A stretch of DNA of 64,000 bases from NCBI GenBank assembly GCA_014685065.1, contig GCA_014685065.1_4092.1, one strand, 5' to 3'. Below, in pieces: positions 23,082-32,753 of this stretch; the stretch's first letter is position 1; each line of letters starts with the position of its first letter. The stretch is from a phage. A program made the position numbers and the translations under genes. The notes beneath the pieces were generated by a model, which made no database searches, was not told the origin of the DNA, and saw only the letters and a program-made list of their open reading frames with translations.

Positions 23082-25189
<2,108 letters not shown>

Positions 25190-25216: not shown

Positions 25217-25753
25217 ATGAATAGATTACAACAAATCCTAACTGAAAAGAAACCAGTTTATGAATACCGAGTTAAGTTTGCAGTTGAACCATCACCGGAA
25301 CAACTTAGTAAAGTAACACAGCGACTAATGGACCGCTATGATGCATTTGAAATTGGTGCACTTAAGAAAACAATTTTTATGGAAAAACCATTAGATTTCT
25401 ATGAATTAGATTGTGGTGAAATTTGGATGTTTGATTTTAAATGTCATCGTGGTGTTCAATCAAACGTACTAATGTATGAAATCGGTAATTTACTAAGTAT
25501 GACCGAAGCACTGATTCGTGTACGCAGTAAAGATGAACCTCGTCAAATTGAAATGACTGACCTAGAAGATGATATCGATTTTGATGATGTTGATGAGCCA
25601 ATTATTGGTGTAGATTTTGGTAAACCAGAAGACAGTTATGATTTAGCTGGTCAACAACGTGCTGAAACAGCAGTTGATGATGCAATTGAAGCATCTAAAA
25701 AAGACAATAAATACTCTCAATATATGAGTGCTGGTTTTGGTAAAAAGGATTAA
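25217..25753 (+). CDS. hypothetical protein
   Basis: ORF. Confidence 0.45.
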   Translation: MNRLQQILTEKKPVYEYRVKFAVEPSPEQLSKVTQRLMDRYDAFEIGALKKTIFMEKPLDFYELDCGEIWMFDFKCHRGVQSNVLMYEIGNLLSMTEALIRVRSKDEPRQIEMTDLEDDIDFDDVDEPIIGVDFGKPEDSYDLAGQQRAETAVDDAIEASKKDNKYSQYMSAGFGKKD

Positions 25754-25756
25754 CAC

Positions 25757-26299
25757 ATGAGTATACTTAATGAAATGTTAGATTATGAAGACAATGAGTT
25801 AAATGAAGCTCGTCCTTATAGTCGTTCACAAAGTGCAGTTGATAGTGCAAAAGGAAAAGTAAAAGGCTTTTTTGGTAGTGGACAGATAGAACAAGGTGCA
25901 CAAGAGGTTGGTGCTGAAGCTAACCGATTGTGGGCCGAGTTTAAACGATATGTTGGACGTAAATATGGTAAAGCTCAACCATCAGTACCTTACGCTGATG
26001 TGGCACAGTTTTTTAAAGGTAACAATCTGGATATTAAACATTTAGGGAACAATCCTCGTCGTTCTTTTACACCAAAAGATGTAGGTACTGCTCTATTAAA
26101 TGCTGCTCGTGATATAATGAATGACTACCGTGACCAACAAGGCGGCGAAGAAAGTTCAGAATCACAACCATCACAATCGACCTCAACTGAGCAACCAGCA
26201 CAACAAGAACAACCAAAAGCACAAGGTTCCAGTATCCCTGATGCTCTACAAAAATTAAGTCCAGAGCAACGCGACCAACTGTTACGTATGCTTTCTTAA
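25757..26299 (+). CDS. hypothetical protein, Q/E/S-rich tail ending LLRMLS
   Basis: ORF 180 aa. Confidence 0.45.
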   Translation: MSILNEMLDYEDNELNEARPYSRSQSAVDSAKGKVKGFFGSGQIEQGAQEVGAEANRLWAEFKRYVGRKYGKAQPSVPYADVAQFFKGNNLDIKHLGNNPRRSFTPKDVGTALLNAARDIMNDYRDQQGGEESSESQPSQSTSTEQPAQQEQPKAQGSSIPDALQKLSPEQRDQLLRMLS

Positions 26300-26312
26300 G
26301 GAGAATCAACAC

Positions 26313-27830
26313 ATGGATAATTTTTTCAGTACTGAAACTACCACAGTTCCTAATGGATATGTATATACGTCACATACTGGTGCAAAATATGTATTTCTTG
26401 AAGGATTCTGGTTCAATGACAATAATATGTTAATGGTAGACCCTAGAAAATACCCATCCATGTACGCAAGTGCTCGACAACAGATTGTCGAGCACAATCT
26501 AGCTTCAAATGAATATAAGATTGGTAACAAATATATTGTTGAAGGTAAAGAGTGTACATTTATTGGTGAAAACCGTTTCAATTCAAAAGATGGAATTCTA
26601 TTAACTGAAAGTGAATTCATCACTGAATTAATGGCAGATGATCATCGAGTATATAATGTTTCTAAAGAAACACTACAAAAAGAATGGAATGCATTAAAAT
26701 TTTACATTCTTCCACCATATGCTGATGATATATCAATTCCAGCAGGTATGGAAGTAAGTGGTTTTAAATTTGTGCCAAAGAATCACCGTTTTGTTGATAT
26801 GAAATCAGGACGAGCAGTTGATCCAGCAATGACCCGTAAACTATCAGATGAAGGTATGCGTATTGCTCGTCAGTTAGCTTCTAAAAATAAACTAATTCCA
26901 ATCAAATCAACCTTAGTTCAAGGCAATACACGTTGTGAGTGGAATGGTAAAGAATTTTGTGATAATGATGGTAATGTAGTAATTCCAGAACAAAATGCAC
27001 ATGCAATTATTAATGCATATCAGCAATTTGTTAAGAATAACCCAAGTGATTTTCCAACATTAACGGGTGAACAAGAACATAGTGAGCAACGTTTTGGTTC
27101 AGGTGAAAAGCCACAACAAGCTTCACAACCTGCTAAACAGCCAGTATTTGCAACTAAAGAATCAATTAATGAAGCAGATGAAGAAATTGAAGAATTTGAA
27201 AGTATTACTGTTCCTGACGGTTATAGAATGACTTCTTCTAAAGGAAAAACATACGCTAAGAAAAATAACTTGTGGTATGATATCGAAAGTAAAAAGCAAC
27301 TTAACACAAGTGCTTCTAAAAGTGTTGAACGAGCAGCACAGCGTGATATTTTCCGTCATAACAATTCCGGTGCTATGAAAATCGGTACAAAAGTTAAATC
27401 CAAACAAGGCAAAGAATATTCGTATGTTGGTGGTGACAGATTCATTAGTGCTGATGGTAAGTTTATACCAAAAGCAACTGCTGCTAAATTACTTGCCAAA
27501 TATGAACAAGATAAAGAAGTTAAAAGTGATGAAACACCTGAAGTAGACTCTGGTACTGAGCAAATTCAATCAAAAGAAGAACCTAAGAAAGAACCAGAAT
27601 CTGAACAAAAACCAGACGAAGTTCCTGAACCAGAAACTAAATCTGAAACAATTGCTGGTGATGATGTACAATCATTAGCTTCTAAAATTAAAGAGTCACC
27701 TTATGCTAAAAAAATCACAGTACTACTAACTCGTGGTGATGAGGTTTCTCTACTTGCTGCTGACATTTTACTTTCAGGTAAAAAGGATGAAACAGTGCAA
27801 ATTTTAAAATCATTAAATAATAATGATTGA
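26313..27830 (+). CDS. hypothetical protein with internal repeats (PNGYVYTSHTGAKY / PDGYRMTSSKGKTY)
   Basis: ORF 505 aa. Confidence 0.5.
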   Translation: MDNFFSTETTTVPNGYVYTSHTGAKYVFLEGFWFNDNNMLMVDPRKYPSMYASARQQIVEHNLASNEYKIGNKYIVEGKECTFIGENRFNSKDGILLTESEFITELMADDHRVYNVSKETLQKEWNALKFYILPPYADDISIPAGMEVSGFKFVPKNHRFVDMKSGRAVDPAMTRKLSDEGMRIARQLASKNKLIPIKSTLVQGNTRCEWNGKEFCDNDGNVVIPEQNAHAIINAYQQFVKNNPSDFPTLTGEQEHSEQRFGSGEKPQQASQPAKQPVFATKESINEADEEIEEFESITVPDGYRMTSSKGKTYAKKNNLWYDIESKKQLNTSASKSVERAAQRDIFRHNNSGAMKIGTKVKSKQGKEYSYVGGDRFISADGKFIPKATAAKLLAKYEQDKEVKSDETPEVDSGTEQIQSKEEPKKEPESEQKPDEVPEPETKSETIAGDDVQSLASKIKESPYAKKITVLLTRGDEVSLLAADILLSGKKDETVQILKSLNNND

Positions 27831-27852
27831 TAACTAAAAGGATTTATTTAAA

Positions 27853-28833
27853 ATGGCTAAAAAAATTAATGAAGCACAAGTTAAAATCGATATCGCAGGT
27901 TTAGAATCTGATGATTTGGAAACACTATCACGTATGTTAGCACTTGCTGGTCAAGCTGAACGTCAAGACCCAGTTGTTGCTGCTCCAGTACCATCAATGG
28001 GGTCTATGACTCCATCTCTTCCACCTATTGCTCCACTAGATCTAGATTCTATTGGTGCTGAAGAAGAAATTGGTGGAATTGAAACTTCAGTTGAAGACCC
28101 ACTAGCAGCGGCAGTTGATGATCTTTCCGCTGATGTTGGTGATTTTGGTGCTGACTCAGATGAAGTTAGTATGGATGCTGAATTTTCAGAACCAGGTGTA
28201 GAAGGTGAAGAAGATTTTTCTCTTGACCTTAGTGGTCAACCTCAACTAGAATCAGTTGAAGAAGACGATGAGGAAGAAGAAGAAATTATTGAAGAAGAAT
28301 TCGATTTTAGTCGTATGCTATCCCTTGCTGGTATTAACGAAGAAGAAGACGAAGATTTTTCCGTAGAGGGTAATCCTGCCACCGATAAAGAAATGAAAGA
28401 TACCCAATTTCTACCAGATCTAAGTATCTCTGAAGATGAAGAACCATCTAACAGTACTGATTACGGTCCATATGGAACAGAAGCTGATGCAGTTCGTGAT
28501 GGTCAACTAAAGACTAATGGTGTTGAAGGTGACCATTTTGTTGTAATTGCAAAAGGCAATCAGTTTTATTGGAGACGTGTTGTAGATGAAGATCTTGACA
28601 ATCGTCCAGAACCTGAGTATTATGATAATGAAGGGAACGAAAATCGTGTTCATAAATTTGAACCAAAATTCCCAGGCACTGCATTAGGAGATAACCCACT
28701 AAATGTTAATGAAAGTGAAGAAGATGATTCACCTGAAGGTAACATTGACTTGGAAGATGATTCTGATGAAGAAGTAGAAGATATTTTTGAAAGTCTCCAA
28801 GAAAAATACAAGAAATTTTTAGGAGACAAATAA
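27853..28833 (+). CDS. highly acidic protein with duplicated SRML(A/S)LAG motif
   Basis: D/E-rich 326 aa, motif at two positions. Confidence 0.5.
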   Translation: MAKKINEAQVKIDIAGLESDDLETLSRMLALAGQAERQDPVVAAPVPSMGSMTPSLPPIAPLDLDSIGAEEEIGGIETSVEDPLAAAVDDLSADVGDFGADSDEVSMDAEFSEPGVEGEEDFSLDLSGQPQLESVEEDDEEEEEIIEEEFDFSRMLSLAGINEEEDEDFSVEGNPATDKEMKDTQFLPDLSISEDEEPSNSTDYGPYGTEADAVRDGQLKTNGVEGDHFVVIAKGNQFYWRRVVDEDLDNRPEPEYYDNEGNENRVHKFEPKFPGTALGDNPLNVNESEEDDSPEGNIDLEDDSDEEVEDIFESLQEKYKKFLGDK

Positions 28834-28834
28834 T

Positions 28835-29230
28835 ATGCAATATAATTATCGTGAACTAGTTGAAGCGTTAGACGAAATTACCGGAAGAGATGAAGACGAA
28901 AGTTTTTCAGTTGAAGTTGAATCCGATGTTGTAGCAGTTGATGTTCTTAAGGATATTACCAAATGTCTTATTAACATTGTTGATAAGATTAAATCTGGTG
29001 AAGACCAAAAAGAAATTGTAGATAAACTACAAAAAGCCTGTGACATTTTGTCTGATATTCGATATAATGATGAAAGTACTGAAGTTGCTGATGACGAAGT
29101 GTTGGAAGCCATTGCAGGTTGTTTTGGTACTGAAGGTATGGGACCAACAATTGACAAAGAAGGTGTACAACACTATAATGAACCTGGTGCACCATCTTAT
29201 GCTGCACGTCAAGGTTTTGTTGGAGACTAA
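28835..29230 (+). CDS. hypothetical acidic protein
   Basis: ORF, AGGAG RBS. Confidence 0.45.
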   Translation: MQYNYRELVEALDEITGRDEDESFSVEVESDVVAVDVLKDITKCLINIVDKIKSGEDQKEIVDKLQKACDILSDIRYNDESTEVADDEVLEAIAGCFGTEGMGPTIDKEGVQHYNEPGAPSYAARQGFVGD

Positions 29231-29928: not shown

Positions 29929-31254
29929 ATGACTACTCAAAACGATATCCTGAACGTTAAACTGACTCCAAAGAAAGCTAAAGAAGCAATGGCACTGGCT
30001 GACATGATTCAAGATAGCCTGATGATTTGGGGTAGCCCAGGTATCGGTAAGTCTGCTATCGCTCGTCAATATGCTGATGAAAATTACCCACTGCGTAAAG
30101 ATAACGTAGCTAAAATCGAGTTCATGAAACAACAAATCGAAGCTGACCCTGAAAATGCTGATCAGCTACGCCGTGAACTGGCTGCATTTGAAGCAAAACT
30201 AATCGACCAAGATACTAACTTTATCGATTTCCGTTTGTCTCAAATTGAACCAAGTGACCTTCGCGGTATCCCTGTACCAGAGAAGCTTTTCCGTAAAACT
30301 GACGGTTCTCTTCTCAAAGAATCTGAGCTTGCTGAAGCAAAAGATTATGTGGCTGAAACTGCTGTAGTATGGGCTGCACCTAAAGTACTGAAATTGTCCG
30401 AAGATTGGAAAGGTGTTATTCTGTTTGACGAAATTAACTCTGCAATGCCTATTGTTCAGGCAGCGTCTTATCAGCTAATCCTCGACCGTTGTGTTGGTGA
30501 GATGAAGCTACCTAAGACTGCACTGATTCTTGCAGCAGGTAACCGTGAAACTGATGGCGGTGTAACGTTCTCTCTTGCTACACCACTGCGTGACCGTATG
30601 ACTCACATTGAGATGATTCCTTATCATCAAGATTGGATTAACGATTATGCGATTGCAAAACGTTTGAACCCAGCAACTGTTGCGTTCATCAACAACACTG
30701 GTTCTAAGTACTTTAACACACTTAGCCCACAAGATCCTTCTCACAGCGGTGGTACTTCTCCACGTTCATGGGAAGCAGTAGCACGCTACGAAGATCTCAA
30801 GAAAAATAAGACAATTGATAAAGAAGTGTTCCGTGCAATGATTGCTGGTCGTGTTGGTGAAGGTGTTGCGACTGAATACATTGAGTACGTTGAGAACGTT
30901 GCTAAACTACCAGATACTATGTCTATTCTGTCTGGTGAAATCAAAGAAATCGACGCAACGCTGGATATTTCTGCGAACTACTTTATCACTCTGAACTTGG
31001 TTTATAAAATTATCGACCTGTTCAATGAGAAGCAAGAACAACGTCTACCAGTGGAAGAATGGGGTAAACTGTGTAACAACTTCATCACCTTCCTAGACCA
31101 TAACTTCTCTGCAACTCAAGCAGAACTGGCAGTACTGGCAATTCGTACCATCACGCTTCATAAGGTTGCGATTTCCATTAAAGATGTACCAGCGTTTAAA
31201 GATTTCATCGCTAAGTACTCTGAACTTGTACGTAAAGCACGCTCTCTTGGCTAA
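29929..31254 (+). CDS. MoxR/RavA-like AAA+ ATPase
   Basis: Walker A GSPGIGKS, Walker B ILFDEIN, AAGNRE sensor region; strong CTG/CGT/GGT codon bias. Confidence 0.7.
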   Translation: MTTQNDILNVKLTPKKAKEAMALADMIQDSLMIWGSPGIGKSAIARQYADENYPLRKDNVAKIEFMKQQIEADPENADQLRRELAAFEAKLIDQDTNFIDFRLSQIEPSDLRGIPVPEKLFRKTDGSLLKESELAEAKDYVAETAVVWAAPKVLKLSEDWKGVILFDEINSAMPIVQAASYQLILDRCVGEMKLPKTALILAAGNRETDGGVTFSLATPLRDRMTHIEMIPYHQDWINDYAIAKRLNPATVAFINNTGSKYFNTLSPQDPSHSGGTSPRSWEAVARYEDLKKNKTIDKEVFRAMIAGRVGEGVATEYIEYVENVAKLPDTMSILSGEIKEIDATLDISANYFITLNLVYKIIDLFNEKQEQRLPVEEWGKLCNNFITFLDHNFSATQAELAVLAIRTITLHKVAISIKDVPAFKDFIAKYSELVRKARSLG

Positions 31255-31328: not shown

Positions 31329-32753
31329 ATGTCAGATAACAAATCTACTTCCAGATTTAATGAAGTATCTCCGGCACTCCAGAAAGAATGTCAAGAACGT
31401 CTGGTTCTGGCTCGTACATCTTTGATGTTAACTGCACCATTCTTTGGTGTACTCGCTTCACGTTTACGTCCAGTTCCTAATAATACATGGTGTCGTACTC
31501 TAGCAGTGGATGGTAAACATCTATTCTACAACGTAGAATTTGTAATGGGTATTCAAGACCCATCTAAAAAGAAAGAATATGAAGAAGCTATTCGTGAAAA
31601 GCACCCTGAAGTTACAGACGAACAATTAAAAGAAATGACTGAAGGTTTGACTGATGAAAACCTTGTTGCAGTAATTTGTCATGAAATCCTACACTGTGCT
31701 TACGATCACTTCCTTCGTCGTGGTATGCGTGATCCACAACGTTATAACCGTGCAGCGGATTATGCCATTAACCAAATCATCGTTCGTGAGAAAATTGGAA
31801 AAATCCAAAGTTCATGGTTGTATGATAAAAAATATGAAGGTATGACCGCAGAAGAGATTTACATTCTTCTTGAAGAAGAAGAAGAAAAGCAAGATGGTGA
31901 AGGACAAGGACAACCACAAAGCGGTGGTGGTGAAGGTGAAGGTAAAAATCGTGGAACTTTTGGTGATATTAAAGATGGTAAGGGTAAACCAAAAGGTACT
32001 ACAATTGACCAACATGACGTTCCACAAGAAGGTCAAGAAGGTGGTTCTAGTGAACAACAAAAACGCGATTATATGGATGATTTCAAAACAGCAATGATGA
32101 ATGCTGCACGTGCAGGTGGTACACCAGCAGAAATCGCTCGTATGATTAACAACTTCAAAGAACCAAAGATTGACTGGCGTTCAAAACTTCAACGTACTCT
32201 TCGTAGTTGGTTGAAGTCTGATGCAACTTATCAAAATCCAAATCGCCGTTCATGGGGTGCTGGTTTTGGTTCTAATGGTTCATTCTATGGTAATCCAATT
32301 TACCCAGGGATGAAACCAGATGATGATATTGATATTGCGATTGCACTAGATGCTTCTGGGTCTATTTCTGAAGATATGCTTCGTGATTTCATTAGTGAAG
32401 TTCTTGGCATCACTAAACAATTCAAACAGTTTAAGATTCGTATCATGACTTTTGATACTGAAGTTTATACTGTAAAGGATTACAAAACTGGCGAAGAACG
32501 TAAGATTCTGGAATATCCAGTAAAAGGTGGTGGTGGTACTGACTTTGAAGCAGTATGGGTTCATATGAAGAACGACAACTACAAGCCTAAACAGCTTGTA
32601 ATGTTTACTGATGGTGAACCGTGGCAGTCATGGGGTGATCCAAACTACTGTAAAACATTGTTCGTGATTCACAGTAACCCAAATAAAGTTGCACCATTTG
32701 GTGAGACTGTACACTACGAATATGAAGCTGATAAAAAGCGTCAACGTAGTTAA
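31329..32753 (+). CDS. vWA (MIDAS) domain protein with N-terminal HExxH metallopeptidase-like motif
   Basis: HEILH at N-terminal third; DASGS ... TDGE MIDAS residues in C-terminal half; Gly/Glu-rich linker. Confidence 0.65.
   Translation: MSDNKSTSRFNEVSPALQKECQERLVLARTSLMLTAPFFGVLASRLRPVPNNTWCRTLAVDGKHLFYNVEFVMGIQDPSKKKEYEEAIREKHPEVTDEQLKEMTEGLTDENLVAVICHEILHCAYDHFLRRGMRDPQRYNRAADYAINQIIVREKIGKIQSSWLYDKKYEGMTAEEIYILLEEEEEKQDGEGQGQPQSGGGEGEGKNRGTFGDIKDGKGKPKGTTIDQHDVPQEGQEGGSSEQQKRDYMDDFKTAMMNAARAGGTPAEIARMINNFKEPKIDWRSKLQRTLRSWLKSDATYQNPNRRSWGAGFGSNGSFYGNPIYPGMKPDDDIDIAIALDASGSISEDMLRDFISEVLGITKQFKQFKIRIMTFDTEVYTVKDYKTGEERKILEYPVKGGGGTDFEAVWVHMKNDNYKPKQLVMFTDGEPWQSWGDPNYCKTLFVIHSNPNKVAPFGETVHYEYEADKKRQRS

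Follow-up and report, generated by a model that had tools for sequence, protein, structure and literature searches.

A repeated, scaffold-tip-like helix in an acidic virion protein of 121Q-type jumbo coliphages: a candidate prohead-docking element

The window analyzed in the current study (the whole 64,000-nucleotide stretch of contig GCA_014685065.1_4092.1, GenBank assembly GCA_014685065.1) belongs to an Asteriusvirus jumbo coliphage and is 99% identical to the E. coli phages phAPEC6, PBECO4 and 121Q (~350 kb). The region of interest spans three genes, corresponding to 121Q gp558, gp559 and gp560, which encode proteins of 180, 505 and 326 amino acids (aa; table 1). A first annotation made from the letters of this DNA alone (hereafter the sequence-only reading) had noticed a recurring peptide, SRML(A/S)LAG, in acidic proteins of this region, and had proposed that it serves as a short docking or targeting signal. 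The three open reading frames (ORFs) matched PHROG families over their full length, but no function is assigned to these families beyond "virion structural protein", save for an "Hsp70" label on the 180-aa protein.

The 326-aa protein is a member of phrog_15988 (E = 3.6e-141, residues 1–326) and is 99% identical to 121Q gp560 and phAPEC6 gp267c. It is extremely acidic, with 29% D+E, a net charge of -74 and an isoelectric point (pI) of 4.05. A search of 5.8 billion proteins returned 102 relatives, and distant relatives were collected by a profile search of 1.84 billion representatives. Conservation was measured on an alignment of 99 orthologues (31–87% identity), which was also used for an AlphaFold2 (AF2) model with a mean predicted local distance difference test score (pLDDT) of 60.6. 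The only confidently folded part of the model was a small domain at aa 203–242, which is triplicated in some relatives (P0017, P0088). A C-terminal helix was also predicted, in which I311, E313 and S314 are nearly invariant among orthologues, together with two helices that hold the recurring peptide and are flanked by sequence with pLDDT <50. Outside these four parts model confidence was low and the chain is presumably disordered. Searches of Pfam, of PDB sequences and with Foldseek (PDB and BFVD) found orthologues only; the Pfam search gave zero matches at E<=1, including to PF12699 (phiKZ_IP).

Table 1. Features of the region and of neighbouring genes, in window coordinates (arrows mark candidate cut sites; nt, nucleotides; HMM, hidden Markov model).
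Feature	Position	Strand	Description	Basis
Gene of 326-aa acidic virion protein	27853..28833	+	121Q gp560, phAPEC6 gp267c, CBB_213, GAP32_207; phrog_15988	ORF list
N-terminus of 326-aa protein	27853..27876	+	aa 1–8, MAKKINE↓A, candidate T4-style [LIM]-x-E↓A prohead protease site	Orthologue alignment
Predicted helix with motif copy 1	27907..27960	+	aa 19–36, SDDLETLSRMLALAGQAE; copy 1 LSRMLALAGQAE, core L25–E36 (nt 27925–27960); LSRMLALAGQ, aa 25–34; SRMLALAG, nt 27928–27951	AF2, pLDDT ~77
Weak degenerate third copy	28207..28254	+	aa 119–134, EEDFSLDLSGQPQLES	Copy-1 HMM, 10.7 bits; family matrix, 11.7 bits, rank 7 genome-wide
Motif copy 2	28306..28341	+	aa 152–163, FSRMLSLAGINE; FSRMLSLAGI, aa 152–161; SRMLSLAG, nt 28309–28332; short helix, then I-N-E (canonical [LI]-x-E)	AF2 helix 152–158, pLDDT ~77
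Small beta-alpha-beta-beta domain	28459..28578	+	aa 203–242, GPY..TNGVEGDHF..FYWRR	AF2, pLDDT 89–96
C-terminal helix	28774..28821	+	aa 308–323, ending ..VEDIFESLQEKYKKF	AF2, pLDDT ~88
Gene of 180-aa protein	25757..26299	+	121Q gp558; ends ..QLLRMLS (LLRMLS, nt 26279–26296); no motif; conserved N-terminal [LIV]-x-E	ORF list; HMMs silent
Gene of 505-aa virion protein	26313..27830	+	121Q gp559; no motif	ORF list, PHROG
Neighbouring gene	24635..25189	+	Conserved N-terminal [LIV]-x-E	
Neighbouring gene	25217..25753	+	Conserved N-terminal [LIV]-x-E	
Gene of 131-aa protein	28835..29230	+	Adjoins gp560 gene; conserved N-terminal [LIV]-x-E	
MoxR-type AAA+ ATPase gene	29929..31254	+	Downstream	
DUF2201 (vWA-like) gene	31329..32753	+	Downstream	
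gp546 gene	15938..16315	+	125 aa; ..ELEQIEYLAGQ; rejected match	Motif matrices

Both peptides named in the sequence-only reading, LSRMLALAGQ and FSRMLSLAGI, were present in the 326-aa protein, 127 residues apart. The two 12-mers are alike at 9/12 residues but at 22/36 nucleotides (61%), indicating that the copies do not stem from a recent DNA duplication, and a tandem-repeat scan of the DNA detected trivial GAA-type runs only. Conservation in orthologues, on which the signal proposal had been staked, was found: both copies are kept in ~170 relatives, distant ones included, and the motif is equally conserved in phages of Escherichia, Klebsiella, Erwinia, Xanthomonas and Vibrio. Copy 1 (consensus D[LF]ETLSRMLALAGQAE) had the highest mean column conservation in the protein (0.95) and is almost invariant even among orthologues at 35–45% overall identity. 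Copy 2, with the orthologue consensus DDFDMxRMSSLAG[IL]xES, reached 0.72, compared with 0.64 for the folded domain and ~0.4 for the flanking acidic sequence. When copies were counted with an iterated family matrix over 177 family members, exactly two were found in 132/177 and three above threshold in 16/177; the orthologue of Vibrio phage 2.275.O has three. On the basis of the models, the recurring peptide appears to form a short amphipathic helix with a Gly cap, of the pattern phi(-8)-x-x-phi(-5)-x-x-L(-2)-[AS](-1)-G(0)-phi/Q(+1). The motif strings did not occur in the literature searched.

The distant uncultured members of the family (230–700 aa) carry the module K[IL]NEA..GL[EN][ST].D.ETLSQ[MI]L.LAG[QV]AE internally, with a second LAG helix after it. 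In the uncultured relatives P0259–P0297, the module with "MKK[IL]NEA" is preceded by 115–500 residues of a larger protein, with N-terminal domains of varied kinds (DUF7249/phrog_871 in P0261 and P0274), and an internal Met is kept just ahead of the module. This arrangement suggests that genes have fused, or else that a start or a cleavage site lies within the protein.

For the genome-wide search, the complete 121Q genome (348 kb) was assembled from seven fetched segments, giving 5,012 six-frame ORFs, and was scanned with HMMs built from copy 1, copy 2 and both combined, using instances from ~100 orthologues. The only ORF that scored was gp560, with 23–28 bits and independent E-values of 1e-5 to 1e-7, while the next-best match in the genome stayed below 6.2 bits. 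With the family matrix, copy 1 scored 28.1 bits and ranked first in the 121Q proteome. The expectation of a signal shared across the genome was thus not borne out: neither the HMM nor the matrix scans revealed a second convincing bearer in 121Q, and besides gp560 the pattern was borne only by the tip of the scaffolding protein, described below. Apart from gp560 itself, both motif matrices matched gp546 best, but this match was rejected as chance: orthologues of gp546 do not conserve the Gly, and the protein has the look of a folded enzyme, with PF01981 (peptidyl-tRNA hydrolase PTH2) in one orthologue.

The sequence-only reading had counted the end of the preceding protein, LLRMLS, as a further trace of the motif. 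This hexapeptide does end the 180-aa protein, but that protein is encoded two genes upstream, with the 505-aa ORF between, and is not adjacent. As an instance of the motif it fails, being without LAG..E and unscored by the HMMs, and its orthologues end in KLLRLIS or QLLSLLA. The motif is therefore a repeat within one protein, absent from the neighbouring proteins, and not a signal common to them. Likewise, the description "acidic proteins" holds for the 326-aa protein, the only one with the motif, but the 180-aa and 505-aa proteins are mildly acidic (pI 5.3–5.5).

Low-complexity acidic proteins often hold short repeats, and the motif might on that ground be a functionless relic of duplication or a chance resemblance. 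This explanation is close to negligible, since it is contradicted by the conservation: across ~170 relatives no other part of the protein is conserved as well as the copies, while their flanks diverge freely. The nucleotide divergence between the copies also speaks against it, as does the failure of the HMMs to find anything comparable elsewhere in the 348 kb.

A similar element was found in the head module of 121Q, which comprises the portal gp598, gp599, the acidic gp600, a gp21-like protease gp601 (the GAP32_248 record carries PF03420, Peptidase_U9), the scaffolding protein gp602 and a gp23-like major capsid protein (MCP) gp603. The C-terminus of gp602 ends in ..DDMAFLKELDVLSGINKK, and other scaffolds end in VVELEQIRKLAGLSR, IIEIKRLAGLQ or, in PA5oct, EELRRLAGIK. 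In RaK2, GAP32, XaC1, PA5oct and 120 database homologues (30–100% identity) the end always has the form phi-x-x-phi-x-[KR]-[LN]-A-G-[ILM]-x-K-COOH, and its Gly is one of only 25 invariant columns of the scaffold. The AF2 model of the scaffold consists of long helices, a disordered linker (315–350) and a terminal helix (353–365) followed by S-G-INKK-COOH. This predicted layout, a tether and then a short helix, is the same as that of the motif helices in the 326-aa protein, and the pattern common to both families is phi(-8)xx phi(-5)xx L(-2)[AS](-1)G(0)phi(+1). The protease gp601 also has a conserved C-terminal tail (..EIYDFFKKLKG), but this does not match the motif. It takes the form ..[EQ]I.[DQ]FFK.LKG-COOH in 121Q (gp601, L002, 33748–34371), RaK2, GAP32 and XaC1, and may be a separate targeting or autoprocessing element.

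The resemblance was assessed by ranking windows within single proteins. With a matrix derived from the motifs of the acidic protein only, the extreme C-terminal window was the top one of ~355 in 117/120 scaffolds (75/77 distinct tails), kindred sequences being included in these counts; in a subset, column-permuted matrices gave 1.3/30 as against 29/30 observed. In the reverse test, with a matrix from the scaffold tails only, the best window was a motif copy in 144/163 family proteins (permuted mean 1.8). Overall, the permuted controls amounted to ~1–4% for both tests. Together with the islands of conservation and the predicted helices in disordered surroundings, this two-way match fits the short docking or targeting signal that had been proposed.

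Candidate cut sites near the motif were also considered. T4 head proteins (gp67, gp22, gp24, gp21) start M-x(3-8)-[LI]-x-E↓[AST], and the N-terminus MAKKINE↓A is of the same style as those of T4 gp24 (MAKINELLRE↓S), gp22 (MLKEQLIAE↓A) and gp67 (MEGLIE↓A). An [LIVM]xE with E7, followed by A8 at P1', was found in 98/99 orthologues, which is a match in sequence pattern only to a T4-type propeptide (~10 residues, L/I-x-E). In 121Q, an N-terminal [LIVM]xE was present in 5/5 head-module proteins (gp599–603; Fisher p = 1.5e-4) and in 5/7 of the cluster gp556–562 (p = 0.0024); the rate in the rest of the predicted proteome was 17%, and none of the recognised tail proteins had it. In 89/99 orthologues a second [LIVM]xE immediately follows copy 2, its E being residue 163, with S at P1' in 80. 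Over 264 distinct motif instances, E stood at +3 from the motif Gly in 198 (75%). The MCP itself (..HRKVMLTE43↓SATSG..NKVILPIMRRVMP) aligns with the cleavage region of T4 gp23 (..SFLTE65↓AEIGG), and loss of 43 residues at E43 would fit the shift from 42.2 to 37 kDa seen for the MCP by sodium dodecyl sulfate polyacrylamide gel electrophoresis (PMC5646251). Cleavage of the 326-aa protein at any of these sites is likewise putative.

These observations would also be compatible with helices that mark the protein for recognition and cutting by the prohead protease and play no part in docking, the scaffold then being a substrate too or a binder of the protease. The frequency of E at +3 is what such a role would predict, the tails of copy 2 mostly read [ILMV]-x-E-S, which is the T4 gp21 consensus, and in T4 the protease is itself located in the core (PMC9026906). 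We consider this explanation unlikely, because the scaffold has K/R and then its C-terminus after the motif, without a Glu to cut, and conservation peaks in the helix (-8 to 0) and not at P3–P1. Moreover, T4-type proteases are described as needing little beyond L/I-x-E (PMC9026906), which leaves a conserved 12-residue helix unexplained.

Published mass spectrometry places the family in virions. The phAPEC6 protein gp267c was detected by one peptide, with 4.9% coverage (PMC7247149, Table 1), and it is the 326-aa protein, with an identical mass of 35.96 kDa; the sole fully tryptic 16-mer that fits this coverage is IDIAGLESDDLETLSR (aa 12–27). The CBB_213 orthologue was detected by five peptides, with 18.9% coverage (PMC5259590, Table 4). 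Its coverage is ambiguous as a subset sum, but every solution includes peptides of the C-terminal domain. Virion presence of the family is also found in the annotations of 121Q, GAP32 and K64-1. Bubblegram imaging has revealed a phiKZ-like inner body in 121Q and phAPEC6; the authors of the phAPEC6 study found no homologues of phiKZ inner-body proteins, and the literature searched contained no assignment of inner-body proteins for RaK2/121Q-type phages. The internal-protein role raised by the sequence-only reading is thus plausible, given the virion association and the conserved N-terminal [IL]-x-E↓A, but unproven.

The gene order around the gp560 gene is tail tube, head completion, three small genes, the repeat protein, the gp560 gene, the 131-aa gene, MoxR ATPase and DUF2201. 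It was the same in all contexts examined, namely 121Q, GAP32, K64-1, CBB, two metagenomic contigs and Vibrio phage 2.275.O. That the cluster holds so strictly, next to genes for tail tube, head completion, MoxR ATPase and DUF2201 and in distant phages as well, may indicate that the helices bind a partner outside capsid assembly, in the virion or in the course of morphogenesis: their own C-terminal domain, the virion proteins gp557–561, the portal or neck, or the adjacent MoxR-type ATPase, which is also present in virions. The likeness to the scaffold tip would then be convergent, that of a generic amphipathic helix with a Gly cap, and L-A-G is a common helix C-cap. This explanation is doubtful; the position-specific matrix tests were far above the permuted controls in both directions, and the cluster shares the N-terminal [LIVM]xE with the head module and not with tail proteins.

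The net charge of -74 and the presence in virions also bear on a role in the host, in which gp560, once ejected, would counter restriction or another host defence, for instance as an acidic decoy or a DNA mimic, and the helices would bind a host target. Internal proteins of T4, IPI* for one, are ejected and counteract restriction, and distant relatives of gp560 fuse other domains (DUF7249) ahead of the module, as might be expected of cargo. The DNA mimics Ocr (T7) and ArdA have a very low pI in common with gp560, but they are rigid, folded arrays of carboxylates, whereas the acidic parts of gp560 are predicted to be disordered, are poorly conserved and are variable both in length and in sequence. 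The Pfam, PDB-sequence and Foldseek searches revealed no resemblance of gp560 to Ocr, to ArdA or to any structure solved so far. In addition, the motif is conserved across phages of five host genera and matches a phage protein, the scaffold, and not any identified host motif. A host-acting role is therefore improbable, and the DNA-mimic role offered in the sequence-only reading gained no support.

Taken together, the results suggest that RaK2/121Q-type phages have in the 326-aa protein a conserved, highly acidic and largely disordered component that is probably associated with the head. In the explanation proposed here, to which we assign a probability of about 0.5, the motif copies imitate the scaffold tip and serve as helices for docking to the prohead, and the Glu that follows each of them is a possible cut site of a T4 gp21-type protease. 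During prohead assembly the gp560 helices would occupy the binding site of the scaffold tip, most likely on the inner face of the MCP or, alternatively, on the scaffold core, and gp560 would thereby be co-incorporated into the head. The gp21-type protease would then cut at the Glu three residues past the Gly (Q-A-E36, I-N-E163) and at the N-terminal I-N-E7↓A, detaching the acidic segments and the small C-terminal domain, which would remain in the head. This docking and tethering, and the presumed partner, are proposed by analogy: the C-terminus of the P22 scaffold gp8 binds its MCP (PMC6813328), and the capsid targeting sequences (CTSs) of T4 are propeptides with affinity for the core (PMC9026906).

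The scaffold of 121Q resembles the coat-binding end of P22 gp8, a helix-turn-helix, and of the herpesvirus scaffold in that a short helical element, as predicted by AF2, follows a flexible linker on a long helical scaffold. It differs in that the element also occurs twice, internally, in a second protein that is not a scaffold; furthermore, the 121Q-type tip has no sequence similarity to P22 gp8, and its binding to the MCP is putative. In herpesviruses the scaffold attaches to the major capsid protein by its C-terminal tail, which the maturation protease cuts off at the M-site, and the possible protease site beside the docking element of gp560 is reminiscent of this.

The likeness to the T4 CTS (IPI–III, Alt; cut by gp21 at L/I-x-E) lies in a T4-type head module with homologues of gp20, gp21, gp22 and gp23, in the conserved N-terminus MAKKINE↓A in the style of gp24, gp22 and gp67, and in the virion association of gp560. 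However, the CTS is a single N-terminal peptide of 10 residues, whereas the helices of gp560 lie at aa 19–36 and 152–163, occur twice and resemble the scaffold tip. The T4 internal proteins are also small and not extremely acidic, unlike gp560. In encapsulins, cargo is held to the inside of a shell of HK97 fold by a short, conserved, flexibly linked loading peptide. The concept is the same, but sequence and system are unrelated and the encapsulin peptide is usually single and terminal, making this an analogy only. As for the phiKZ-type inner-body proteins (PF12699), gp560 is a virion protein of a phage with a phiKZ-like inner body, but is without a PF12699 match.

Several observations weigh against docking by a scaffold-like tip. 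The motif is short, and the regular expression phi..phi..L[AS]G[ILMVQ] had nine matches in the 121Q genome, so the pattern alone is not specific; HMMER profiles of the scaffold or of the acidic-protein family did not retrieve the other family. The link to the scaffold therefore rests on the within-protein rank tests, whose counts take in related sequences and are not independent events, although the effect is large and holds in both directions despite this kinship. The scaffold tip of 121Q itself scored 6.8 bits only and was inconspicuous in the whole-proteome scan. The charge after the Gly differs, being E or otherwise acidic in the gp560 family and K/R followed by the C-terminus in the scaffold, and the C-terminus of T4 gp22 is without a LAG tip. 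With respect to processing, the N-terminal [LIVM]xE is a loose signature, given its 17% background. Copy 1 is followed by Q-A-E (V-A-E in distant members), and Q instead of L/I at P3 makes this a non-canonical T4 site; in the orthologue of the Vibrio phage, position +3 is D. If the phAPEC6 virion peptide is aa 12–27, the N-terminal segment is seemingly kept in virions. Finally, the gp560 gene lies between tail-tube, head-completion and MoxR ATPase genes and not in the head module, so that a neck or tail location is also conceivable.

It is already known that the gp560 family consists of virion proteins, catalogued without an assigned function, and that peptides load proteins into shells of HK97 fold (T4 CTS, scaffold termini, encapsulin cargo peptides). 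What appears to be new, judged from sequence comparison, is a docking-like element that is duplicated, internal and a copy of the scaffold tip in RaK2/121Q-type phages. The link between scaffold tip and gp560 gives a concrete hypothesis, testable by mutation, of a shared docking site for the loading of T=28 heads, and gp556–561 of 121Q form a shortlist of candidate head-internal proteins. More tentatively, and with the odds against it, the "LAG helix" could be a portable capsid-loading tag, two or three copies of the scaffold tip bringing gp560 into the T=28 prohead and the protease releasing it. If this were true, gp560 and its neighbours gp556–561 would be candidates for components of the inner body or for ejection proteins. 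Should the hypothesis of a shared docking site hold, a peptide of ~15 residues could be used to package foreign cargo in very large capsids, as T4 CTS and P22 scaffold fusions are used today.

Four neighbours of the gp560 gene have a conserved T4-style N-terminal [LIV]-x-E (table 1), their N-termini being MKSKPQIDE↓ALGLP, MNRLQQILTE↓K, MSILNE↓M and MQYNYRELVE↓A, and the pattern is also present in GAP32 and K64-1. At the level of sequence, this suggests that the gp556–561 cluster is processed head cargo. The name "Hsp70 heat shock protein" of the 180-aa protein (phrog_16152), which has been copied into several GenBank records, is unsupported: no HSP70 Pfam match was obtained, and its sole Pfam match was a sub-threshold one to FAM110_C. 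The 505-aa protein consists largely of three internal repeats of ~100 aa (..TVPxGY..G.KY..) with 21–30% identity between repeats. Its K64-1 orthologue is shorter, at 328 aa, and the repeats therefore probably differ in number between phages.

The 131-aa protein encoded next to gp560 is very acidic (pI 4.1). Its match to PF12699 (phiKZ-like internal head) was sub-threshold (E = 0.036; 13.7 bits with a cut-off of 27) and too weak to use, though of note given the inner body of these phages. The MoxR-type ATPase and DUF2201 genes downstream occur as a pair in all relatives examined; the DUF2201 gene goes under "HNH endonuclease" or "Zn-dependent hydrolase" in some records. Six peptides of the ATPase (gp265c) were detected in phAPEC6 virions, an unusual place for an enzyme of the MoxR type. 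Outside the window, at 117089–131255 of 121Q, lies a tandem array of RCC1-like "DNA condensation" genes, which has been reported for 121Q and phAPEC6. Several of the RCC1-like proteins are virion proteins of phAPEC6, and were proposed by its authors as candidates for the inner body.

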